A stretch of 64,000 bases of DNA from an uncultured Candidatus Peregrinibacteria bacterium (GTDB lineage Bacteria; Patescibacteriota; Gracilibacteria; UBA1369), in contig CALMAI010000004.1 in NCBI GenBank assembly GCA_937858825.1, forward strand, positions 3,833 through 67,832. The letters run 5' to 3'. A program made the position numbers and the translations under genes. Position 1 is the stretch's first letter, and the number at the start of each line of letters is the position of its first letter. The notes beneath the pieces were generated by a model that was given only the letters and a program-made list of their open reading frames with translations, did no database searches and was not told the DNA's origin. Below are positions 1 to 29,329 of the stretch, piece after piece.

Positions 1-3000
1 TTTCATGATTTCCAGGTAGTGGTTTGTTGCTTCAGCGAGCGCGCCGAACTGAATGTAGGCGAGTGCGGCGTAGATGTGGTCTTCGGTGGTGAGTTCGTTG
101 TTGGTTGTGAGGTGGTTGAGCTCGGTGAGGCGCGGCGCATCAACTGATGCTAATCCATAAATGGCCTGGAGTTTTCGTGTAAGTGTTTCATCTTTACTTT
201 CAATAATAGCTGTTAATTCTTGTCGGGCGGCCCGGTCATCCCAAAGGGTTTCATCCAGCCCCAGGAGAAGGGAAGTGAGAGCAAGGTCGGAATCGGCATA
301 TGGAACGATTGAGATTCCGCTCGTTGCTGTTTGATATGGTGTATAGTCGAACGCTTCAACCGGTGACTCCTGGTCAAAATACTCCGCGAGTAGTTTTTGA
401 GCGACATAGTCTGCCGCTGCCATGTCGGCACGACGAACGGTGTTGTAAGTAGCACTCATTAAGGTTCCATAGATTGGTCCAACCTCGTTGTTTCCAAAGA
501 TGAGCTCCGTTCGATCTTCGCTTGATCCAGGAATAGTCATTCCTCCTGTGACAGCACCATTCCACATTTTGGTCTCTTTTAAGTGGGTTGAGCTAACGTT
601 TGTTGTGAGAGCGATGGTGTCGGTGTTGTCACCGGCTTTGGCTGTTACTTCAATGCGGTGATCTCCAAGGGTGAGGGTTGGCAAGGTGATATAACTCGGG
701 ACAAAGGCTTTTCCAACGATGGACTCTTCAAAGTTGAGGTTTGGTACTTTGAGGGTGAAGTTTATGTCATTGTCTTCGGTGAGTCCTGTTCCGTATGCGC
801 GAATCGGAATAGATGGGTCGTCGCCTTCCAGATATTCTGGATTGATGACTGGTACAGCAAAGACCGGTTTGGTAACAGGAATTGAGATTGAGGTGTGGCC
901 TGCTTTAATTGTTCCTCCTTTTATGGCTGCGATGCTCGCACGCCATGAGGTGATGTTATCCGGCAGCTCGAAGGTGACTTGAGCGTTTCCGTTCCCATCG
1001 GTTTCTACGACTTCAAAGATAGCTGTATCTTTAAACACGTCGCGGGTTCCACCTTTTTGGTTGTGAACGTAAATTCCGTCTGCAAAGTAGGTGTGATAGC
1101 TCTCTACTTCAAAGTTATAAACTTTTCGTGATTCGTGAATGGTTTCGATGCTGTTAATGACAACTGGTGTTCCGTTTTGGTCAAGGAGGGTGTCTCCCAG
1201 CTTGGCTTTTCCGGCAAGTTGCCATTGTCCATTCAGGAAGATGATGTGCTCTTTTGTTACTCCAAGGTGGTTGTTCATGAGTAGGTATTCGTTGATGTCA
1301 TGTTCGACTGTTTTTACAACTTTTCCGGCCACAAGCCGTCCGTCTCGTGCTTCCGCCCTGGTAAGAATGGCGTCTCCACTCTTAATGTCTTCAATAGATT
1401 TGGTGCTGCCATCGGCCATAAGGATTTGGGTTCCGGCAATGAAACATCCTCCCATTCCGCCGTCAGTTGCGGCGACAGCATTTTCGAGTGATTCATACGA
1501 TTGCCCAAAGTCTGAGAATGAGTTTTCGTAGATTGCATTGAGCGGATCATTAAATCCTTCGGCAAAGAGTGCATAATAGGCTTCGTCGACCAGGTAAATG
1601 TTGGCATAGGCGTTAGCAACGGGCGTTCCGTTGTCGGCAACGTGAACGGTAAGGGTAATGTTTTCTCCCGGTTCGTAGCTTGCCTGGTTTGGCTGAGCGG
1701 TAATGTCGAGTCGGCGGGTTTCGTAGTCGAAGCTGAATCTTCGTGGGTAGGATGCCCGGTATCGGGTTCCATCGTAGCTATAAACCTTTATTGAGGTGTT
1801 TGGGATTCCTTCTTCTTTAAATGTGTAGTCGAAGGTTTGATCTTGAGAAAGGATGTTGGATTCTACTTCACGGTATGCAACTGAGTAGATGAAGGTGTTG
1901 TTTCCGCTCAATTGTTCTCCATTATGATCGACAACCTGGAGTTGAATTTGATCTCCCGGAACAAATTTTTCGTCTTCGTCTCCGCCAACAAGTTGGAGGA
2001 ATCCGTCGTCGTAGCGGTATGATTGTCCAATAAACCCAGTTTCTTTGTAGAAACGATTTTCATCGTCATAAATGGTGTAGATGACACGATAGCTTTTGTC
2101 TTCATCCAGTTCTGGATTGAATTCAATGATCCCCTGGTTGTCTGCTGTTTTACTTTCTTGTGCAACTTCTTCAAAGCGGGTTTCATATTGATACTGGGGT
2201 TGTAATGTTTTTGTGAGAGGATCGTATTTTTGCCCTGTTTCGATACGGTCATTGAAAACCTCTTCAATGAGAATGTTGGCGGTTGCATTTTTTGCTGGTC
2301 CTTGCCATACATCTGCCTGGCCATAAACGTATGGGAGCTCCGCAACTTTGTTCATATCAACTTGTTGAAGTTCCAGGCGAATATTGTCTGCCTTTGTCTC
2401 TATTTCTGACGCGCCAACGCTTGATCGTACTATGTGGATGGATGTTGATCCGGTGATGTCGGCCAACTCTTCTCGCACGGGAGTAATAGTTTGGTATGCA
2501 GTGTAGAAGAGGCTGCAATATATTTCGCCTTCGCATGAGTTGGTGGTGTCGTTATACGTGATGGATGCTTTTCCTTGAATATCGGTTTGGATTTGTTCAT
2601 TTTGGTTTGGATTCACGTAGTTTCTGGTTTGAAGCTCCAGGTTTGGGACTGGCGTTCCTTCAAAGAAGGTTGTTTCAATGTTGATGTTGGTTGAATCGCC
2701 CCGGTAGATTGCTTTTCTTTCCGGAGTTGCCGTAATTTGATATTCCGGTTTTGTGTATGGGGAGACACTAAAGTAGGTTGAGCTTACGGTCTCATTATTT
2801 TGAACCAGTGTGATGTTATATGATTGGGCTGGTAGGCGGTCGATGTTGAAGGATCCGCTGAGTACTTGTCCGTCGTGAATTTCTACATCCTGTTCGTAAT
2901 AGATCTGGTCTGATGTTGCGATTGCATAGTCAAAGAGGAAGTAGTTTGGGGTGACAACAAGTTTTGCAGGACCATTAACTGGTTCGTTTTTTCCCTGGAT

Positions 3001-4614
3001 GAAAGCCCAATAATAGATTGTATCGGTTGGGAGGTAGTTACTACGATCGGTCTGGAAGTAGTCCCACACGGTTTCTTCGTATGAAGACCAGCTACGGAGT
3101 TCATAGAATGTTGTGAATCCATTTGGAGGGGTAACTTTGATTAGATTTTCTCCAGAGGTCTGCTTTTCGTAGTCGTACTGTTCTATTGGTAGTTCATCCA
3201 GTTCCACAAATCCGTTTTGGTCTGTTGATACGGTTGTGTCTGAATTGGAGATTTGAACTGTTGCTCCTGGAATTGGATTTTTGTTTTGGTTGTCGTGGAG
3301 CCAGACAAAGGCTTTCTCTGTGCTAATGTTCAAGAATGCCGCGGTGTTACTTACCTGGATAAGTGATTGCACGACTTCGTCGTTGGATCTTAGTTCTATG
3401 AGGTAGTATCCTTCGGGGAGAACTTCTGGTAGTGCCAGATATTTTGTGTAGTCGGGTCCTTCTAGTGGAAGGTTGTTGAAGCTGAATTTTTCGCTGAGGT
3501 TGTTGGTGTCGATATTTTGTTCGCGATACTGAACCCAGTATGGTTTTCCTGCAAATTTCTGGTTGATAATTTGCTCAAAATTGTCGGCATTTGGAATGGT
3601 ATAAACCGATCCTGATACAACTTGAGACGCTCCTTCTCTGTCATTGAAATTTATTTCCAGAACTGGTTCGCGGGAAGGATCAAATTCGTTAATGTTTTTT
3701 CTAAAGTTGATATTTGTGAGGTAAGCCGTTGATCCACTGGTTTCGAACTGGAATGTGTATGGTTGTCCAAGAGTTTTATCACTTCCTGGGATAGTAAGGT
3801 TTTCGTTGATGGTCACGGTATATACTGTTTCTTTTTTCAACTCTTCGGGCGCGAAAATTCCTGTTTTTCCATCCATACTAAAGGTTCCGTTGATGCTTGG
3901 CTCAATGCTGAAGTTGTTTTGGAACTCTTGGGCGGTGATGCCATAGTTATTGAACTGGATTTCGATGCCGCTATTGGTTGGCACGCCGCTGGTTTGGTTT
4001 CCCGGGATGGTGCTGGTGATGGCAAGTTGGTTGGATACCTGGAATGCCCAGCTGTACTCTTTTTTGTATGGGCTGTCGGTGATGTTTTGGGCTTCGAGGG
4101 TGATGGAGTAAACTTCTCCTTCTTTCAATGTTTCTGTTGGACGGATAATGATTTCGTTGTCAGTGCGCTGTTTTGCTTCGACTGCCACTTCGGGGGTGAT
4201 AATTAGGTTTTGTTCTATTTCCCCGGCATTTATCGATCCTTTACTCTTTAAAAGGAATTCGTTGTCTGCGTCGATGCCGGCCTCACTTTCTGCTAATGCT
4301 GTGAGAGTGTAATAATCTTTGGCTTCGGCGACGTTGACGAACTCTACTGGTAGAACATTTTTTGGTACAAAAATGTTGAATGAAAAGAGGAGAACGAGAA
4401 CAAGGGCAGTTGCCGGTATCAATCCAAATTTAAAGAGTGAGTCAAAGTTGAACCGTTTACGTTTCTCTTTTGTTGAGGGTTCGTTCATGGTTTTGGCTTT
4501 GTCTTGAATCTGGCTTCGAAGCTGATTCTTGAAATCTGGATTTCCTTTTTTCTTCAGCATGGTTGCAAGCTGTTTAAGATCTTTCTCCAAGTTGTTGTTG
4601 TTATTTTTTGGCAT
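1..4614 (-). CDS. Giant membrane-anchored alpha-2-macroglobulin (A2M)-like protein, C-terminus cut by the window edge (>=1538 aa)
   Basis: Absent from the ORF track because there is no stop inside the window. Minus-strand frame read by hand from ATG 4614-4612 (MPKNNNNNLEKDLKQLATMLKKKG...). 4614-3360 and 1680-1 were translated codon by codon with no stop; the interval between them was read through more quickly and no stop was noticed. No track ORF shares this frame. Short N-terminal tail, one TM (FGLIPATALVLVLLFSFNIF), long beta-rich MG/Ig-like region, 'ANIYLVDEAYYALF', the A2M-domain hallmark 'RDVFKDTAIFEVVETDGNGNAQVTFELPDNITSWR', then a helical TED-like region. Confidence 0.85.
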   Translation of the reverse strand, partial: MPKNNNNNLEKDLKQLATMLKKKGNPDFKNQLRSQIQDKAKTMNEPSTKEKRKRFNFDSLFKFGLIPATALVLVLLFSFNIFVPKNVLPVEFVNVAEAKDYYTLTALAESEAGIDADNEFLLKSKGSINAGEIEQNLIITPEVAVEAKQRTDNEIIIRPTETLKEGEVYSITLEAQNITDSPYKKEYSWAFQVSNQLAITSTIPGNQTSGVPTNSGIEIQFNNYGITAQEFQNNFSIEPSINGTFSMDGKTGIFAPEELKKETVYTVTINENLTIPGSDKTLGQPYTFQFETSGSTAYLTNINFRKNINEFDPSREPVLEINFNDREGASQVVSGSVYTIPNADNFEQIINQKFAGKPYWVQYREQNIDTNNLSEKFSFNNLPLEGPDYTKYLALPEVLPEGYYLIELRSNDEVVQSLIQVSNTAAFLNISTEKAFVWLHDNQNKNPIPGATVQISNSDTTVSTDQNGFVELDELPIEQYDYEKQTSGENLIKVTPPNGFTTFYELRSWSSYEETVWDYFQTDRSNYLPTDTIYYWAFIQGKNEPVNGPAKLVVTPNYFLFDYAIATSDQIYYEQDVEIHDGQVLSGSFNIDRLPAQSYNITLVQNNETVSSTYFSVSPYTKPEYQITATPERKAIYRGDSTNINIETTFFEGTPVPNLELQTRNYVNPNQNEQIQTDIQGKASITYNDTTNSCEGEIYCSLFYTAYQTITPVREELADITGSTSIHIVRSSVGASEIETKADNIRLELQQVDMNKVAELPYVYGQADVWQGPAKNATANILIEEVFNDRIETGQKYDPLTKTLQPQYQYETRFEEVAQESKTADNQGIIEFNPELDEDKSYRVIYTIYDDENRFYKETGFIGQSYRYDDGFLQLVGGDEDEKFVPGDQIQLQVVDHNGEQLSGNNTFIYSVAYREVESNILSQDQTFDYTFKEEGIPNTSIKVYSYDGTRYRASYPRRFSFDYETRRLDITAQPNQASYEPGENITLTVHVADNGTPVANAYANIYLVDEAYYALFAEGFNDPLNAIYENSFSDFGQSYESLENAVAATDGGMGGCFIAGTQILMADGSTKSIEDIKSGDAILTRAEARDGRLVAGKVVKTVEHDINEYLLMNNHLGVTKEHIIFLNGQWQLAGKAKLGDTLLDQNGTPVVINSIETIHESRKVYNFEVESYHTYFADGIYVHNQKGGTRDVFKDTAIFEVVETDGNGNAQVTFELPDNITSWRASIAAIKGGTIKAGHTSISIPVTKPVFAVPVINPEYLEGDDPSIPIRAYGTGLTEDNDINFTLKVPNLNFEESIVGKAFVPSYITLPTLTLGDHRIEVTAKAGDNTDTIALTTNVSSTHLKETKMWNGAVTGGMTIPGSSEDRTELIFGNNEVGPIYGTLMSATYNTVRRADMAAADYVAQKLLAEYFDQESPVEAFDYTPYQTATSGISIVPYADSDLALTSLLLGLDETLWDDRAARQELTAIIESKDETLTRKLQAIYGLASVDAPRLTELNHLTTNNELTTEDHIYAALAYIQFGALAEATNHYLEIMK
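1060..1446 (-). other. Hint (intein-like / BIL-type) domain embedded in the A2M-like CDS, 129 aa
   Basis: Hand translation verified codon by codon: CFIAGTQILMADGSTKSIEDIKSGDAILT...LGVTKEHIIF...RKVYNFEVESYHTYFADGIYVHN. Cys1 (block A), T-x-x-H (block B) and terminal His-Asn (block G) are all present. The next residue is Gln (HN|QKGG), not Cys/Ser/Thr. There is no endonuclease insert. Confidence 0.8.
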
Positions 4615-4617
4615 GCT

Positions 4618-5172
4618 TTAGTAGTTACACATTTGTTGGAGTCGCGCCATGGCCCGGTTGAGTTTTACTCCCACGTTTGATGTGGTGATGTTGAGTGTTT
4701 CTGCTATCTCTTTATAGGAGAGGTTTTCGAAATATTTGAGGGTGATGATGTGCTTTTCGTCGTCTTTGAGTTTTTCGAGGGCAAGGTGGAGGGATGAGAG
4801 GCTTTCCGTGAATTCGATCTGTTCTTCGTGTTCTTTCATGGATGTGTCGGCTGCTTCCGCCTTGGTTTCGTTGTTGTGGATTTGCTTGATGGCGGTCTTT
4901 TGTGCCTTCTGATTTGATCGGAAATAGTCGTTCATTTTGTTAATGGCAATGCGGTAGAGCCAGGCGCTGAAAGGTTTTCCGGTATATTCGTAGTCGTCCA
5001 TTTTTTCCAGCGCGGTCATGAAGGTTTCGGATGTGATGTCCTGTGCGTCGTGCTGGTTGTAGACCCGGGAGACAACGTATTTGAAAATTTTTTCAAAGTT
5101 GGCGTCGTAGAGTGCTACAAATGCAGTTTTATCTTGTTGTGCGGCTTCAATGAGCTGTTTTTCGGTGGCCAT
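4618..5172 (-). CDS. ECF-type RNA polymerase sigma-70 factor
   Basis: 184 aa. Region 2 (FEKIFKYVVSRVYNQHDAQDITSETFMTALEKMDDY...FSAWLYRIAINKMNDYFR) and region 4 HTH (LSYKEIAETLNITTSNVGVKLNRAMARL). The stop lies 3 nt upstream of the A2M-like start. Confidence 0.9.
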   Translation of the reverse strand: MATEKQLIEAAQQDKTAFVALYDANFEKIFKYVVSRVYNQHDAQDITSETFMTALEKMDDYEYTGKPFSAWLYRIAINKMNDYFRSNQKAQKTAIKQIHNNETKAEAADTSMKEHEEQIEFTESLSSLHLALEKLKDDEKHIITLKYFENLSYKEIAETLNITTSNVGVKLNRAMARLQQMCNY

Positions 5173-5235: not shown

Positions 5236-5832
5236 TTACATTTTTTTTAGCATTTCTTCGACCTGGAAGAGTGGAAGGCCGATAACGTTGTGATAGTCAC
5301 CATAAATTGTGTGGATGAATTTACCGGCGTGACCTTCGATAGTTAGAGCTCCCGCAACGTTCAGTACATCGTCCTCTTTAATAATCTGGTCAATTTCCTG
5401 GTTGGAAATGTTCCCAAAGTGCAGTGTGGTAACGGCGTGTTCGCTGAGTTTTTTGATAATTGTACCACGGTCATTGGTCTTGATAACAGCAACACCTGTG
5501 TAAATTTTCATGACATTGTTGCTGTAGGCGGCGATCATTTTTTTTGCCTCAGTCATGGATTTGGGTTTGCCGAATTTTTTACCATTCATGGTTCCGAAAG
5601 TGTCGGCTCCGATAATGATGGAGTCTGGATATTTGTGTGCCACGAATTCGGCCTTTTTGAAGGCTAGGAATTTGGCGAGCGCTGGAGCAGTTTTGCGGGC
5701 GTTCATGTCTTCTTCATATCCACTAGCGTGACATTCGAAATCGATCTCCAGCTCTTTGAGAAGTTTGCGGCGGGCTGGTGATCTGGATGCGAGGATGATT
5801 CTGGCGGGTGGTTTTTTTGGCATTTCTGCCAT
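5236..5832 (-). CDS. maf: Maf-like nucleoside triphosphate pyrophosphatase (septum formation protein Maf)
   Basis: 198 aa. ILASRSPARRKLLKELEIDF, IIGADT and YGDYHNVIGLPL are typical Maf family motifs. Confidence 0.85.
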   Translation of the reverse strand: MAEMPKKPPARIILASRSPARRKLLKELEIDFECHASGYEEDMNARKTAPALAKFLAFKKAEFVAHKYPDSIIIGADTFGTMNGKKFGKPKSMTEAKKMIAAYSNNVMKIYTGVAVIKTNDRGTIIKKLSEHAVTTLHFGNISNQEIDQIIKEDDVLNVAGALTIEGHAGKFIHTIYGDYHNVIGLPLFQVEEMLKKM

Positions 5833-5841
5833 TATACCACC

Positions 5842-6156
5842 TTATTGACGATCTTTTTTCTTTTTGCTCCGAATTTTTATGTATTCGGCGATGGGCTGAT
5901 CGTTCTTTTTGTAGAGGATTTTAAGAATGATCAGAATGCTGGTGGCAGAGGTGTTGAGTGATGCTGATGCAATGAGAGGTATGTCTTGTAAGTGGTATCC
6001 GTAGATTGCCCAGGATAGTGATCCTCCCAAAAAAAGGATAAGCATGGACCATGCGACATCGCGGAGGTGCTGGGTGTGAATGGCCTTGTACACTTCCGGG
6101 ATGAGGTGTGTTCCGGTGAGTAAGACGCCGATATATCCAAAAATAGTGAAATCCAT
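5842..6156 (-). CDS. SemiSWEET / PQ-loop family 3-TM transporter
   Basis: 104 aa with three predicted TM helices. PQ-loop-like 'HLIPEVYKAIHTQHLRDVAW...SWAIYGY' and a basic C-terminal tail. Confidence 0.55.
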   Translation of the reverse strand: MDFTIFGYIGVLLTGTHLIPEVYKAIHTQHLRDVAWSMLILFLGGSLSWAIYGYHLQDIPLIASASLNTSATSILIILKILYKKNDQPIAEYIKIRSKKKKDRQ

Positions 6157-6246
6157 AATAGTTGGTGATTCATATTATTATACCATTTTTTAAGGCGTGA
6201 GTCTATTAAGGGAGTGTGATATAATGGTTCGAGTAATCAAAAAAAT

Positions 6247-7263
6247 ATGAAAAAATATGTTAGTCGGGTTTTGTCTGGATTAGGTGGCGGTGTGCTGCTT
6301 AATTTTTTGTTTGTTTCGCCGGCTCTGGCACATGTGAAGTGGTTTGTGGAAACGGAGGAAATTGTGGCCAAAGAGACCACACATTATGCGCTGACTGATC
6401 CGTTTGTGATGATGTGGATAGCGGTTATTGTTTTAACGGTACTGGTGGCATTTTTGCTGGATATTGTTTTGCCTGAGCCGAAGGCTAAAATTTTTAAAAA
6501 GGCGGAGAAGTGGAAGTCTGTTATTTATAAAATTTTTGCAATAACGATTGGTGTAAACTTCTTGCTGGAAGCGTATCTTGGTGCAGTTTTTGCTCCACCT
6601 TTTAAAGTGGTTTCGACTTTTGAATTTGCACTGGTTGGATTGCAGGTTCTTTTAGGCTTGATGCTTACTTTTGGAGTGAAAGTTCGATGGGCAGCGGCTG
6701 GGATTGTTCTTTTGTATCTTGGATCGATGATGTCTTATGGCGTTATGCCACTTCTGGATGAAGTTTTTATGATTGGAGTGGCGGCGTTTTTGTTTTTGGA
6801 ACATCCAGAGAGTTATACCTGGTCAAAAGAGTACGAGGCTTATGCGATTCCGCTATTGCGTGTTTTTTCCGGTATAGCTTTGATTGTGTTGGCCTTTTCG
6901 GAAAAGTTTTTACACCCGGAATTGGGGCTCAACTTTTTGAACGAGTTTCATTGGAATTTTATGCAGATGTTGGGGATTGCTGATTTTTCGAATTTGATGT
7001 TCGTTTTTTCGGCGGGAGCTATGGAGTTTTTGTTCGGAACGATTTTAATACTTGGATTTATTCCCCGCATTAATATGTTTGCGACAGCTTTCTTTTTCAC
7101 CATTACGTTTATACTTTTGGGGCCGATTGAAGTGATTGGACACATGCCTATTTTTGTTACTGCGTTGGTGATTATTTTGTATGGAGGAGGGGAACGATTG
7201 AATTTTCGGGAATTGATTCCACATAAAAAGCGCAGCAAGGTTGCCGCGCTTTTTGGTAGATAA
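6247..7263 (+). CDS. Polytopic integral membrane protein, function unknown (DoxX-like?)
   Basis: 338 aa. Signal/TM at the N-terminus (LLNFLFVSPALAHVKWF) and roughly 8 hydrophobic helices. No catalytic motif recognised. Confidence 0.7.
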   Translation: MKKYVSRVLSGLGGGVLLNFLFVSPALAHVKWFVETEEIVAKETTHYALTDPFVMMWIAVIVLTVLVAFLLDIVLPEPKAKIFKKAEKWKSVIYKIFAITIGVNFLLEAYLGAVFAPPFKVVSTFEFALVGLQVLLGLMLTFGVKVRWAAAGIVLLYLGSMMSYGVMPLLDEVFMIGVAAFLFLEHPESYTWSKEYEAYAIPLLRVFSGIALIVLAFSEKFLHPELGLNFLNEFHWNFMQMLGIADFSNLMFVFSAGAMEFLFGTILILGFIPRINMFATAFFFTITFILLGPIEVIGHMPIFVTALVIILYGGGERLNFRELIPHKKRSKVAALFGR

Positions 7264-7275
7264 AATCTGTAATTT

Positions 7276-8457
7276 TTAGCTCTTGGTGCTTGGTTTACTT
7301 TGTGCTTTTTGGCGTAACACCATTACAACTACTCCAATAACAAGTAGTGCGACCAGAATTAGCGCCACAATGTTGTGAAGAATCATCGATACAAAGACAA
7401 CAACAGTTGAAACTACTGCGGCAACAATGAATGTCGCGATTCCAATCACGCTTTTGCTCAGGTCTCCAACGAGTGGTACAAAATCAAGAACGGTGCTGAT
7501 TGGTCCAAGGAGCATACCAAGGCTTACCCACATGAGGAAGAATCCAAGGATGCGAAGCCCCCATGTTGATTGGCTGTGTTCTGTGGTCATTTTTGAGAGT
7601 GACTCTTCGTGTGTGCCGCTGAAAATTCGGTAGAGGTTCGTATTTTTTGGGCCAACGAAAGTGCTGAGTTCTGTTCCGGACTGTTGTCCAAAAGCAGTCA
7701 CCTGTTGGTTTGATGGAACAACAGAGTAGCTAATGCGAACATCTCCAACTTCTGGAGTTTCAAGGGTTCCGAATCCTTTAAAAATGTATTTGTTGCTTTC
7801 CAGGGTTGGGGCAATGTCTTCAAAGTTGTCGAAGTACATCATCTCTTCATCGTCGTCCATCATGAGTTCCCCTTCATTAAGAAGGGCTGTTTCTTCTGTT
7901 AATGGTAGTTCCTGAAATGCCGGGAGTTGAGCTTTATCCAGGTTGAGGGTGTAGAGTCCAACTTTGGCTGAAGGAGCTTTAATGGTTTCATCCTGGATCG
8001 CTTTTTGTGGATTTTGGTGGTCGGCTCCAAATTTAAATTTACTGGAATCCGATGGGTTTGAAGTCCAGACTTTTTCGTATGAATAGATGCGATCTTCCAT
8101 ACGTTTTTGATCTGGATTTTGATTGTCGAGGTAGGTGTCATTGTTTTCTACAGATTCGCTTTTTTCATCCCATGCATACATTTCCACGTTGCGGCGGACG
8201 GCAACATAGTCGCCTTCCTGGAGGTAGATGTCTCCAATCATCCCGTCGGTTTCAATGGTTCCGGAAAGAGATACCAGTTTTCCTTCTGCTTCTGGATTTT
8301 GTTCGGTGGCAGAGATTTTTATAGCATCTTTTGCAACTCCAGATAGATCGACACGACCTTCATTCCAATAAAGGACTCCGATCGATACAAAAAAGAGAAT
8401 AAACCCGATAAGAATCCCTTTTAAAGAACCGGTAAGGCGGTTAAGCGAGTTTTGCAT
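7276..8457 (-). CDS. TMEM43/DUF1625-like membrane protein
   Basis: 393 aa. N-terminal TM followed by 'LYWNEGR', a long soluble middle, and a C-terminal cluster of TM helices. This architecture is typical of bacterial TMEM43-family proteins. Confidence 0.5.
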   Translation of the reverse strand: MQNSLNRLTGSLKGILIGFILFFVSIGVLYWNEGRVDLSGVAKDAIKISATEQNPEAEGKLVSLSGTIETDGMIGDIYLQEGDYVAVRRNVEMYAWDEKSESVENNDTYLDNQNPDQKRMEDRIYSYEKVWTSNPSDSSKFKFGADHQNPQKAIQDETIKAPSAKVGLYTLNLDKAQLPAFQELPLTEETALLNEGELMMDDDEEMMYFDNFEDIAPTLESNKYIFKGFGTLETPEVGDVRISYSVVPSNQQVTAFGQQSGTELSTFVGPKNTNLYRIFSGTHEESLSKMTTEHSQSTWGLRILGFFLMWVSLGMLLGPISTVLDFVPLVGDLSKSVIGIATFIVAAVVSTVVVFVSMILHNIVALILVALLVIGVVVMVLRQKAQSKPSTKS

Positions 8458-27433: not shown

Positions 27434-27925
27434 ATGGCTGAAGACCAAGATTTGCAAATGGCGACGTTTGCAGCAGGATGTTTTTGGGGTGTTGAAGAAA
27501 TTTTTCGTTGTACGAAAGGAGTGGTGGAAACGGAGGTTGGATATACGGGAGGGAAAACTGAAAATCCAAGCTATGAACAGGTTTGTACGGATGGAACCGG
27601 TCATGCTGAAGCGGTGCAGATGAAGTTCGATCCGACTATTGTTTCTTATAAAGAACTTTTGGATATCTTTTTTAAGAATCATAATCCGACAACTATGAAT
27701 CGGCAGGGGCCGGATATTGGATCGCAGTATCGGTCGGTGATTTTTTATCATTCGGAGGAACAGAAAAAAGAGGCGGAGGAGTTTGTGGCAGAACTGCAGG
27801 CATCACCAAAGTATGAGGGGAAGAAAATTGTGACGCAGATTGTGCCGGCTGCGCCGTGGTACAAGGCGGAAGAGTATCATCAGAAGTATGTGATGAAGAA
27901 GGGTGGAGGGAGTTGTCATGTTTAA
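27434..27925 (+). CDS. msrA: Peptide-methionine (S)-S-oxide reductase MsrA
   Basis: 'ATFAAGCFWGVEE', 'GYTGG...NPSYEQVCTDGTGHAEAVQ' and 'QGPDIGSQYRS' are canonical MsrA motifs. Confidence 0.93.
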   Translation: MAEDQDLQMATFAAGCFWGVEEIFRCTKGVVETEVGYTGGKTENPSYEQVCTDGTGHAEAVQMKFDPTIVSYKELLDIFFKNHNPTTMNRQGPDIGSQYRSVIFYHSEEQKKEAEEFVAELQASPKYEGKKIVTQIVPAAPWYKAEEYHQKYVMKKGGGSCHV

Positions 27926-27981
27926 AAATTTGGAATTTTTGGTTGAAAGATTTTTGTAGGAGTTCGTGTATTATAAGTGAC

Positions 27982-28584
27982 ATGTTCAAAGATCACCTGC
28001 AAAAAAAAGATGCTGAACTGGTGGCGGAGGCGCTGAAGGATGCTGATGCGTTTGGGCCAATCGTTGAGCGATATGAAGAGAAGCTGTTACGGTATGTCCG
28101 GCGGTTTACCGGTCTTTCCAGGCAGTGCTGCGAAGATGTCGTGCAGGAGGTTTTTTTGAAAATTTATCGGAACCTGAATGGATTTAATCCTGAAATGCAG
28201 TTTTCCAGTTGGGCGTATCGGATTGCGCATAATGAGGCGATTAATTATTTGAGGAAGAATAAGCAAAATGTGCTGCCGCTGGAGACGGATGATGATGAAA
28301 TGGGTGATCTATTGGATGTATTGCATGCGGACGTTGATATTGCTTCCGATACATCCAAGAAGGAGTTACGAGGGGCGGTGCAGGAAGTGTTGTATGCGAT
28401 GCCGGTGAAGTATAGAGAGGTTTTGGTTTTAAGGTATTTGGAGGATCTGGATTATACGAGTATGGGGGATGTGTTGAAAAAGTCGGTGGGGACAGTTGGA
28501 ACACTTTTGAATCGGGCGAAAGAGAATTTTAAGCGTACTGCTCAGAAAAAAAATTATTCTTTTTTTCAATTTTCGAATGAGTGA
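27982..28584 (+). CDS. ECF-type RNA polymerase sigma-70 factor (second copy)
   Basis: Start moved to ATG 27982 (MFKDHLQKKDAELV...). Region 2 'CCEDVVQEVFLKIYRNLNGFN...FSSWAYRIAHNEAINYLRK', region 4 'LDYTSMGDVLKKSVGTVGTLLNRAKENF'. Confidence 0.88.
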   Translation: MFKDHLQKKDAELVAEALKDADAFGPIVERYEEKLLRYVRRFTGLSRQCCEDVVQEVFLKIYRNLNGFNPEMQFSSWAYRIAHNEAINYLRKNKQNVLPLETDDDEMGDLLDVLHADVDIASDTSKKELRGAVQEVLYAMPVKYREVLVLRYLEDLDYTSMGDVLKKSVGTVGTLLNRAKENFKRTAQKKNYSFFQFSNE

Positions 28585-29329
28585 TTTAAAGAAGTCCGTT
28601 TTGGACACCATTAAAAAAGAGGATGTGAAACCGAAACCGAAATGGTGGTTTGTGGTTATGCATTCAATTGTGTGGGTGGGCGCTGGTATTTCTGTGATTG
28701 TTGGAAGTATTGCGACGGCAGTGGTTTTTCATGAAATTTTTGAAACGGACTGGATGGTGGTTGAGCGGCTTGAGCATGATGGGATTCCGGGATTTTTATT
28801 GGTGTTGCCGTATTTGTGGTTTGGCGCTTTGGGAATCACACTTTTGGCCGCGTACTATTTGTATCGGCATACGGAAAATGGATATAAGAAAGGGCCGGTT
28901 GGGATTTTGATTGGAACAGTGGTGATTTCGGTGATTTTGGGATCGGTTCTCTATGAACGTCAGGTGCCGGAGCGGGTGAAGGATGTGATGGTGGAGCATC
29001 TACCGCCTTTTGCGGAGTTTGAAATGCATAGGCAGGAGGTGTTTATGGCTCCGGAGCGGGGAGTGTTGGTTGGTGTTATTACTGATGTTCAGGGTGATAA
29101 GCTTATGGTGTTGAACGATATTAGAGAAAGGGAGTGGTCGGTTGATATTGCTGGAGCGCGATATGGTGATGATTTGATTGAAGTGGATAAAGAAGTGGTG
29201 TGCCTTGGTGAAAAGAAAGGGGATTTTGGGTTTGTTGCGGTTGAAGTACGGCCGTTGCGAGAGCGCTTTTTGAAGCGCTTAATTGAGTTTCGGAAAAAAG
29301 TTGAAAGAAATGTGAAGCCACCGATGTAG
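28577..29329 (+). CDS. Polytopic membrane protein, putative cognate anti-sigma factor
   Basis: Overlaps the sigma gene stop by 8 nt. Short N-terminal cytoplasmic segment, 3-4 TM helices and a soluble C-terminal domain. The function is inferred from position only. Confidence 0.4.
   Translation: MSDLKKSVLDTIKKEDVKPKPKWWFVVMHSIVWVGAGISVIVGSIATAVVFHEIFETDWMVVERLEHDGIPGFLLVLPYLWFGALGITLLAAYYLYRHTENGYKKGPVGILIGTVVISVILGSVLYERQVPERVKDVMVEHLPPFAEFEMHRQEVFMAPERGVLVGVITDVQGDKLMVLNDIREREWSVDIAGARYGDDLIEVDKEVVCLGEKKGDFGFVAVEVRPLRERFLKRLIEFRKKVERNVKPPM

Follow-up and report, generated by a model that had tools for sequence, protein, structure and literature searches.

The DNA analysed here is a window of 64,000 nucleotides from an uncultured Candidatus Peregrinibacteria bacterium (GenBank assembly GCA_937858825.1, contig CALMAI010000004.1, positions 3,833 to 67,832 of the forward strand). 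At its beginning, on the minus strand, lies a gene for a large alpha-2-macroglobulin (A2M)-like protein, and within this protein is a Hint domain of 129 aa. The gene has its ATG at 4614 and runs past the window start (base 1); 1538 codons are visible without a stop, and the last ~290 residues lie beyond the window edge. Upstream of it and in the same direction is a gene for an extracytoplasmic function (ECF) sigma-70 factor of 184 aa (4618..5172, minus strand), whose stop is separated from the start codon of the A2M-like gene by 3 nt. (An alternative genetic code was considered for the A2M-like gene, TGA being read as Gly in some Gracilibacteria and Gracilibacteria being the taxon label of homologue P0001. 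Comparing codes 11 and 25 across the window did not discriminate between them, and because the gene contains no in-frame TGA, the choice of code is irrelevant to it.)

The host protein belongs to the A2M fold by several kinds of comparison. Above their Pfam cut-offs are Big_5, A2M_BRD (aa 881-1016; 1567..1974, minus strand; PF07703, E 6e-10) and the A2M/MG7 domain (aa 1197-1254; 853..1026, minus strand; PF00207, E 7.5e-6); MG2 and bMG3 fall below theirs, and bMG10 is found in the full-length homologue P0001. The A2M_BRD match covers the MG6/linker part of the fold and is aligned by the family profile to chain residues 814-881 of the E. coli A2M YfhM and to C5 414-607, while the MG7 domain includes the motif LPDNITSWR and has confident strands in the structural model. 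The rest of the ectodomain (1..852, minus strand), which is CUB/TED-like, is ended by the window edge; in full-length homologues the C-terminal part aligns to YfhM 1307-1604. The family profile as a whole matches YfhM (ECAM), Salmonella A2M, TEP1, CD109, human A2M and C5. (A phmmer search with the whole protein against PDB sequences returned relatives of the Hint domain only and no solved A2M; the A2Ms were reached by the family profile.) With Foldseek, the non-Hint parts of the model find A2M-family structures, namely CD109, A2ML1, A2M, C3/C4/C5 and ECAM, at E values of 1e-13 to 1e-9. A polymorphic-toxin reading, after the NCBI name of P0001, was rejected, since the region that follows the Hint is MG7/CUB/TED-like/bMG10 and not a toxin.

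The CxEQ thioester motif of A2Ms is absent from the visible part of the window protein, including the CUB/TED-like region, as well as from the full-length homologues P0001-P0021 and from 146 of the 149 family members described below. A hydrophobicity scan and the positive-inside rule indicate a single transmembrane helix, FKFGLIPATALVLVLLFSFNIFV (4366..4434, minus strand; aa 61-83), with five Lys/Arg just N-terminal of it, and all of the protein beyond aa 83 is predicted to lie outside the cytoplasm. As judged from its sequence, the host is therefore no classical periplasmic A2M but an A2M-like protein that lacks the thioester and is held in the membrane by its N-terminal part.

A complete Hint domain in the bait-region slot

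The Hint domain (1060..1446, minus strand; aa 1057-1185) is of the A-type bacterial intein-like (BIL) or pretoxin-HINT (PT-HINT) kind. Its residues read CFIAGTQILMADG...LGVTKEH...VYNFEVESYHTYFADGIYVHN, with DGGMGG before them and QKGGTRDVFKDTAIF...LPDNITSWR after them. The domain starts with CFIAGT... and ends with YVHN; its catalytic residues are Cys1 (codon 1446-1444), Thr64 and His67 of block B (VTKEH) and His128-Asn129 (Asn codon 1062-1060), and block F is present as VYN...HTYF. A first reading of this DNA, referred to here as the original prediction, had described a 129-aa insert with these motifs and flanks, which agrees exactly with the translated residues 1057-1185. Its claim that the insert is a complete mini Hint is borne out by profile searches: PT-HINT (PF07591) matches with 59.4 bits (E 6.1e-16; gathering cut-off 27.7), and NCBIfam intein_Cterm (TIGR01443) exceeds its cut-off as well. 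Weaker, partial Pfam matches are seen with Hom_end_hint, Vint, Hint_2 and Intein_splicing, the last of these at 33.7 bits, under its cut-off of 35.8.

Among solved structures, the best sequence match is 2LWY, an A-type BIL of Clostridium thermocellum (7.7e-11 with the single sequence, 4e-19 with the family profile); Rhs-type and ADP-ribosyltransferase toxin Hints follow, and then RecA mini-inteins. In an AlphaFold2 model of residues 860-1340 (mean pLDDT 83), the means of 10-residue blocks within the Hint are ~77-94, and Foldseek superposes the model on 2LWY with a TM of 0.84 and an rmsd of 2.0 A over 137 columns. The signature VYNF.V...HTY....HN of blocks F and G is common to the window Hint and 2LWY. 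Taken together, these results identify the domain as a complete mini Hint of the BIL/pretoxin-HINT type.

In a canonical class-1 intein, the residue after the terminal Asn is Cys, Ser or Thr. In the window it is Gln1186 (1057..1059, minus strand; codon CAA), non-nucleophilic as the original prediction had stated, and it is likewise non-nucleophilic in 94% of the family. Because CAA is at least two substitutions away from every Ser, Thr or Cys codon, no single-base error can account for it. A class-3 intein mechanism was considered and rejected, as the Hint has no second Cys and hence lacks the block-F nucleophile of the WCT motif. Intein-type mobility, with a homing endonuclease and sporadic sites in essential proteins, is also not seen: the domain has 129 aa and no endonuclease, and its site is a variable linker. 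An extracytoplasmic host is typical of BIL and PT-HINT domains and not of inteins, and the N-terminal membrane anchor of this host is predicted to place the Hint outside the cytoplasm. With respect to the other mark of BILs, residence in a hypervariable region of a secreted or surface protein, the location is predicted to be extracytoplasmic and the site is a variable linker, but both host and insertion point are conserved, unlike those of classical BILs.

Within the A2M fold, the Hint is flanked by A2M_BRD on one side and MG7 on the other. Upstream of it, an LNK-type helix segment, YLVDEAYYALFAEGFNDPLNAIYEN (1522..1596, minus strand; aa 1007-1031), has helices at model residues 152-157 and 165-169, and its V-D-E-A (LVDEAYYALF...) is invariant in the family. 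There follows a variable, disordered linker, SFSDFGQSYESLENAVAATDGGMGG (1447..1521, minus strand; aa 1032-1056), a residual bait region which ends in a conserved Gly-Gly (-2, -1) and has a pLDDT below 50 at aa 1037-1054 (model residues 178-195). On the other side of the Hint, residues +2 to +15, KGGTRDVFKDTAIF (1015..1056, minus strand), contain an alpha'NT-type Arg1191-x-x-Phe1194 ahead of MG7, with five residues between Asn1185 and Arg1191. Arg1191 is invariant and Phe1194 is at least 90% conserved, in Hint-bearing and Hint-less homologues alike. The bait region of human A2M spans P690-T728 and is followed by the alpha'NT, whose conserved residues include R732 and F735 (PMC9352918); the profile from the Hint C-terminus onward aligns to human A2M 721-803. 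With A2M_BRD before it, MG7 after it and this alignment of the R-x-x-F, the Hint occupies the bait-region slot, after the LNK helix and just before the alpha'NT Arg-x-x-Phe and MG7, in agreement with the position originally assigned to it.

In the family profile, variability peaks in the linker ahead of the Hint (entropy 2.77 bits); the Hint itself has 1.90 bits, and of the junction segments only the short alpha'NT stretch after it is lower (1.68). Since a variable linker of 25 aa is kept upstream, the Hint supplements the bait and does not replace it; the suggestion that it had replaced or supplemented the bait stands in its second half only. In the Hint-less homologues P0013 and P0015-P0021, the columns of the Hint hold 0-5 residues and the linker has the form ...AEGGEGG|D...R..F.D, so that the flanks of the Hint join seamlessly in comparison. 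Because the Hint-less linkers read GG|D, both Gly at -1 and Asp, the residue most often found at +1 in the family, are ancestral linker residues.

Two further features of the linker were seen. P0014 (L004/L005), a Hint-less Bacillota homologue, has an unrelated insert of 47 residues exactly at the Hint site, and this place in the linker seems to be an insertion hot spot. In many members, the linker before the Hint contains an aromatic-x-Ser-His motif, [YF]-x-[YS]-S-H (e.g. YTYISH, AYVSHE), where the window has SYESLE.

Distribution and inheritance of the arrangement

An initial homology search gave 12 homologues with the Hint, which come from assemblies of NCBI, ENA, JGI and Logan and range in identity from 94% to 28%; Hint-less proteins appeared from 27% identity down, and none was seen among the closer homologues in that search. 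A profile search with the junction region (aa 960-1290) then yielded 150 representatives of 50%-identity clusters at E <1e-89. In the examined set of 157 sequences (the 150 representatives plus homologues P0001-P0012), 149 have one continuous match across linker, Hint and MG7, and the architecture is therefore present in at least 149 clusters at 50% identity. (The Hint alone, as a short query, found 7 short Hint proteins and missed even P0001, which is likely to reflect a word-index limit. A Hint-deleted junction query, which could have revealed recent losses of the Hint, gave no match; this looks like the same limit and is not informative on losses.)

The two catalytic ends of the domain, Cys1 and His-Asn, are invariant in all 149 members, and the V-T-x-x-H of block B is invariant in an alignment of 13 sequences. 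The Hint is 129 aa long in 119 members and has a single Cys in 148, and Gly is found at -1 in 140. At +1 the residues are D (64 members), E (30), Q (19), A (19), S (7), N (4), K (3), T (2) and I (1); that is, 140 of the 149 are non-nucleophilic. The idea that cleavage depends on thiols or redox state, which had been offered as an example of conditional firing, finds nothing in the sequence in its favour, given the single Cys of nearly all these Hints.

This pattern of conservation bears on the question of whether the Hint is catalytic at all. It could instead be a dead structural plug which, like the ANA (anaphylatoxin) domain of C3/C4/C5, is excised by external proteases that cut the flanking linkers. 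The Hint shares its slot with the ANA domain, and a variable disordered linker is still present upstream. The linker after the Hint, however, with only ~5 conserved residues, would offer little to a protease, and a structural role would not need an invariant Cys1, His and Asn or an invariant Thr and His in block B. A plug of this kind is accordingly very improbable.

To survey genomes, one genome per GTDB species was scanned, which gave 488 related stretches; the best 80 of the 488 all contain the Hint. Most of these 80 carry names from the candidate phyla radiation (CPR): Peregrinibacteria/Peribacteria, Gracilibacteria, Uhr-, Magasanik-, Falkow-, Moran-, Dojka-, Doudna- and Portnoybacteria, and also Paceibacterota, Parcubacteria and Saccharibacteria. 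Other taxon labels, as recorded, stand on about 16 of them (uncultured Gammaproteobacteria, Flavobacteriales, Nanoarchaeia), and roughly twelve have no classification. The closest genome locus, at 96% identity, is in a Peregrinibacteria metagenome-assembled genome (MAG).

Mean pairwise identity is 54% for the Hint and 36% for the host, and the divergence of the Hint tracks that of the host (r 0.90, 78 pairs). Between the window and the 94%-identical locus L001, dN/dS is 0.034 in the Hint (21 synonymous and 3 non-synonymous substitutions) and 0.078 in the rest of the gene. The GC content of the Hint is the same as that of its flanks. These results for identity, correlation, dN/dS and GC argue that inheritance of the Hint is old and vertical, under strong purifying selection. 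A recent horizontal insertion was rejected because the GC content equals that of the flanks and the divergence follows the host, and a decaying remnant was rejected on the strong purifying selection. Judged by these comparisons, the arrangement is a large, vertically inherited CPR family and not a singular event.

The same observations leave practically no weight for an artefact, whether a chimeric contig or a class-1 intein with a sequencing error at its +1 Gln, or for a remnant in decay, and nothing was found that speaks for any of these. The architecture and its junctions recur in independent NCBI, ENA, JGI and Logan assemblies, which excludes a chimeric assembly; the +1 residue is non-nucleophilic across the family and not only in the CAA codon of the window; and purifying selection is strong and composition uniform.

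Some proteins from the profile search contain more than one Hint. P0117, P0135, P0105, P0084 and P0069 have 3 to ~7 closely related Hints in tandem, with K-G, K-G-G or K-G-G-G between them, and these linkers (...VHN|KGG|CF...) echo the GG|C...HN|xKGG flanks of the A2M-like family.

Possible fates of the Hint domain

BILs have no +1 nucleophile and give mainly N- and C-terminal cleavage products (PMC4031507, PMC7664689). Those of type A are also capable of joining their flanks, for which the N-terminal thioester is attacked by the amine that Asn cyclisation sets free (PMC4031507). In the A2M family, a chain break just upstream of the alpha'NT leads to its retraction from the MG2-MG3 channel and hence to a conformational change. 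C3/C4/C5 have the folded ANA domain in this slot, and furin first frees its N-terminal end and a convertase later its C-terminal end (PMC9352918). Set beside the family described above, this work gives about an even chance to the proposal that the Hint is a domesticated autoprocessing BIL/pretoxin-HINT domain, fixed in the slot of the A2M 'cleavable moiety', which makes two uncoupled cuts and so releases itself. Once the protein has been exported and has folded outside the cytoplasm, Cys1 would form a thioester at Gly1056-Cys1057 by an N-to-S acyl shift, and hydrolysis would be the main way in which this thioester is resolved; cyclisation of Asn1185 would cut the Asn1185-Gln1186 bond. With the Hint gone, the chain would consist of an N-fragment (MG1-MG6 plus linker), still anchored in the membrane, and a C-fragment with QKGGT-R-D-V-F at its start, 5 residues ahead of the alpha'NT motif. 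In this way the Hint would do autonomously the job of the attacking protease in A2M, or of furin plus convertase in C3/C4/C5. A minor fraction spliced by aminolysis could accompany these products.

Several points weigh against this proposal. For every member of the family, cleavage, its rate and its products are inferred. The invariance of both catalytic ends would be equally expected if splicing were the selected outcome, and a spliced product would rebuild exactly the ancestral GG-D linker of the Hint-less homologues. Nine of the 149 members (P0056, P0061, P0086, P0115, P0128, P0153, P0154, P0157 and P0173) have Ser or Thr at +1, so that canonical splicing is possible for them in principle. 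The low dN/dS of the Hint is based on 24 substitutions only. If the Hint fires constitutively, there is no protease-triggered trap, and the retained variable linker has no obvious role. Finally, the 'plug-in-channel' trigger at the alpha'NT was demonstrated in eukaryotic A2M and not in this thioester-less bacterial clade.

Some of these points also speak for splicing, in which the aminolysis of an A-type BIL would join the flanks and restore a Gly-rich bait, giving a single-chain, type-II-like A2M; the Hint would then be a passenger or a maturation step. The flanks are indeed seamless, the Hint-less junction GG|D is the commonest -1/+1 pair of the Hint family, and both catalytic ends are invariant. 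No +1 nucleophile is needed by type A BILs (PMC4031507), and in this respect the original 'should be impossible', which was worded for canonical class-1 splicing, is too strong for splicing in general, even though cleavage dominates in such BILs. Ser or Thr at +1 in 6% of the family would fit this outcome too, and few thiols would be expected outside the cell to compete with the aminolysis. Nevertheless, splicing is rather unlikely to be the main fate, as cleavage is dominant in the BILs that have been tested (PMC4031507, PMC7664689). A mere passenger, moreover, is hard to reconcile with a Hint that has no homing endonuclease and is inherited vertically across hosts down to 26% identity, that is among the two most conserved segments of the junction (entropy 1.90 bits), and that has a dN/dS below that of its host. 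The linker tolerates indels, as the 47-aa insert of P0014 indicates, and should allow an easy loss, yet among the closer homologues found none lacks the Hint.

A third fate would resemble that of Hedgehog proteins: the thioester at Gly1056-Cys1057 would be taken by an external nucleophile, such as an amine or hydroxyl of a molecule on the host-cell surface, of peptidoglycan or of an attacking protease, which would tether the membrane-anchored N-fragment covalently and replace the function of the lost CxEQ. The Gly-Gly|Cys-Phe junction resembles the G|CF site of Hedgehog, and CxEQ is missing from nearly all family members. CPR bacteria are host-attached, and it has been suggested that the A2M-domain proteins on their surface serve against the defences of the host (PMC8080830). 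However, the Hint-less sisters P0013-P0021 are equally without CxEQ, and the loss of the thioester is therefore not tied to the gain of the Hint. The 129-aa Hint has no extra region for recognition of an adduct, and its invariant His-Asn implies that the C-terminal cut, unneeded by Hedgehog-type Hints, is also selected. In addition, a water-exposed thioester would lack a protecting pocket like the TED-MG8 interface. Such a hand-off is thus improbable.

Self-removal by two uncoupled cuts can also be taken one step further, to a possible, if still somewhat doubtful, interpretation in which the autocatalytic Hint is a third kind of A2M 'cleavable moiety', beside the bait and the anaphylatoxin domain, and fires its own conformational switch. 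In a two-step, C3-like version, the N-terminal cut would be a maturation step comparable to furin processing, and a slower or condition-dependent Asn cyclisation would be the activation step, comparable to the convertase cut, which frees the alpha'NT and springs the A2M-like body. In members linked to a sigma factor, the extracellular event might then be relayed to the ECF sigma factor. The result would be a surface switch that is self-timed or gated by the environment and is common to many CPR episymbionts.

In the characterised A2M family (A2M, ECAM, MagD, C3/C4/C5, TEPs, CD109), another enzyme cuts the bait or ANA and so releases the alpha'NT. If the present interpretation is right, the family would provide a natural test of the 'plug-in-channel' trigger model, for which Harwood et al. 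called for a non-proteolytic way of breaking connectivity. It would also extend the uses of BIL/Hint domains past toxin release and protein diversification, and would point to a conserved, abundant surface machine of CPR/Patescibacteria. Protein engineering might also find a use for an A2M scaffold that triggers itself.

The sequences themselves are already public, under automatic database names such as 'polymorphic toxin-type HINT domain-containing protein', 'alpha-2-macroglobulin family protein' and 'Ig-like domain-containing protein', and it is the architecture that is apparently undescribed. Full-text literature searches found no paper that combines A2M with a Hint or intein, or an anti-sigma factor with a macroglobulin, and no self-cleaving moiety of an A2M-family protein came to light in the searches made. 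CPR papers treat large A2M-domain membrane proteins (e.g. of Vampirococcus lugosii) only as a possible defence against host proteases (PMC8080830); those consulted on A2M-domain giant proteins do not mention Hints or inteins, nor, where this was looked for, sigma factors. What appears to be new is the combination of a BIL-type Hint with an A2M-fold host in a functionally critical slot.

The adjacent sigma factor and known systems

The product of the gene upstream has the domains of an ECF sigma factor (Pfam Sigma70_r2 8e-15, Sigma70_r4_2 4e-15, Sigma70_ECF 5e-7). In the window and at all five further homologue loci that were inspected (L001-L006), both Hint-bearing and Hint-less, a sigma gene of the same orientation immediately precedes the A2M-like gene, and the pair of sigma gene and A2M-like gene is present in 44 of the 70 genome loci with enough upstream DNA. 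The A2M-like gene otherwise has unrelated housekeeping genes as neighbours, and the context of a six-gene mag-type operon was not found around it.

The N-terminal cytoplasmic tail of the window protein (4435..4614, minus strand; aa 1-60) is a putative anti-sigma segment. In relatives with a sigma gene, the tail before the membrane helix has a median length of 61 aa, versus 14 aa in those without (Mann-Whitney p 2e-10). The anti-sigma domain zf-HC2 is above its cut-off in the tail of P0014 only; no known anti-sigma domain was detected with Pfam in the tail of the window protein. On the strength of the sigma adjacency, the tail length and the zf-HC2 of P0014, the window protein, together with ~60% of its relatives, is probably a membrane-spanning anti-sigma partner of the adjacent ECF sigma factor. 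Anti-sigma factors whose ectodomain is A2M-like may thus form a class that has not been described. Because the Hint is kept in sigma-less relatives, its role belongs to the A2M-like body and not to sigma signalling as such.

Farther upstream of the sigma gene (window 5236-8457) lie Maf, an open reading frame of 104 aa, one of 338 aa without a Pfam match, and a TMEM43-like protein. The NCBI MAG GCA_041389165.1 (L001; 94% identical) has these genes in the same relative order, which makes the window a close relative of that genome. At 27856-28584 (plus strand) lies the gene for another sigma factor of the ECF type (Sigma70_r2, r4_2), and this gene is overlapped by an open reading frame of 250 aa (28577-29329, plus strand) with a weak, sub-threshold HlyIII match; the two may be a further sigma/anti-sigma pair.

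Among known systems, the A-type BIL/PT-HINT domains, represented by C. thermocellum BIL4 (2LWY), are like the window Hint in their fold (31% identity), in Cys1, T-x-x-H, VYNF...HTY and His-Asn, in the lack of a +1 nucleophile and in the predicted extracytoplasmic location of the host; an N-terminal thioester and Asn cyclisation, with cleavage over splicing, would be expected of both. Classical BIL and pretoxin Hints, however, reside in hypervariable, non-conserved hosts or just upstream of exchangeable toxin domains, whereas the window Hint keeps to one site of a multidomain host that is itself conserved, has passed vertically through the CPR, and has MG7-CUB-TED-like domains behind it instead of a toxin. 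The bait region of A2M, ECAM and MagD and the ANA domain of C3/C4/C5 occupy the same slot as the Hint, and ANA is, as the Hint may be, a small folded domain detachable at both ends. The difference lies in the agent: baits are cut by attacking proteases and ANA by furin and convertases, but the window Hint carries its own catalytic residues for both cuts.

The host finds its nearest counterparts among the thioester-less 'type II' bacterial A2Ms (PMC5764988), such as Pseudomonas aeruginosa MagD and E. coli YfaS, which are likewise large A2M-fold proteins without CxEQ, associated with the cytoplasmic membrane and provided with a bait-type linker. MagD differs in its six-gene mag operon and in a bait that is cut by proteases; compared with type II A2Ms, the window protein has its own N-terminal membrane helix, an upstream ECF sigma gene and the Hint, and it is distant in sequence.

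Class-1 mini-inteins such as the Mtu RecA mini-intein (2IN0) have the Hint fold, Cys1, T-x-x-H, His-Asn and a length of ~130-140 aa without an endonuclease in common with the window Hint. The latter is set apart by the absence of a +1 Cys, Ser or Thr, by a host that is predicted to be extracytoplasmic and does not look essential, and by a site in a variable linker instead of a conserved active site. The Hedgehog (Hog) domain shares the Gly|Cys-Phe scissile junction and, as proposed for the window Hint, an N-to-S acyl shift that creates a reactive thioester on the upstream fragment; it has a sterol-recognition region and no C-terminal cut at His-Asn, while the window Hint has the His-Asn and no extra region.

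Finally, autoproteolytic ECF anti-sigma factors, namely those of the FoxR/FecR type, which use an N-O acyl shift, and RsgI, are single-pass proteins encoded next to a sigma gene and have a self-cleaving extracytoplasmic part, as would be the case here. The cleavages of FoxR/FecR-type proteins and RsgI occur near the membrane and feed regulated intramembrane proteolysis. In the window protein, by contrast, the cut would fall ~970 residues from the membrane helix, and the Hint is also present in relatives without a sigma gene.

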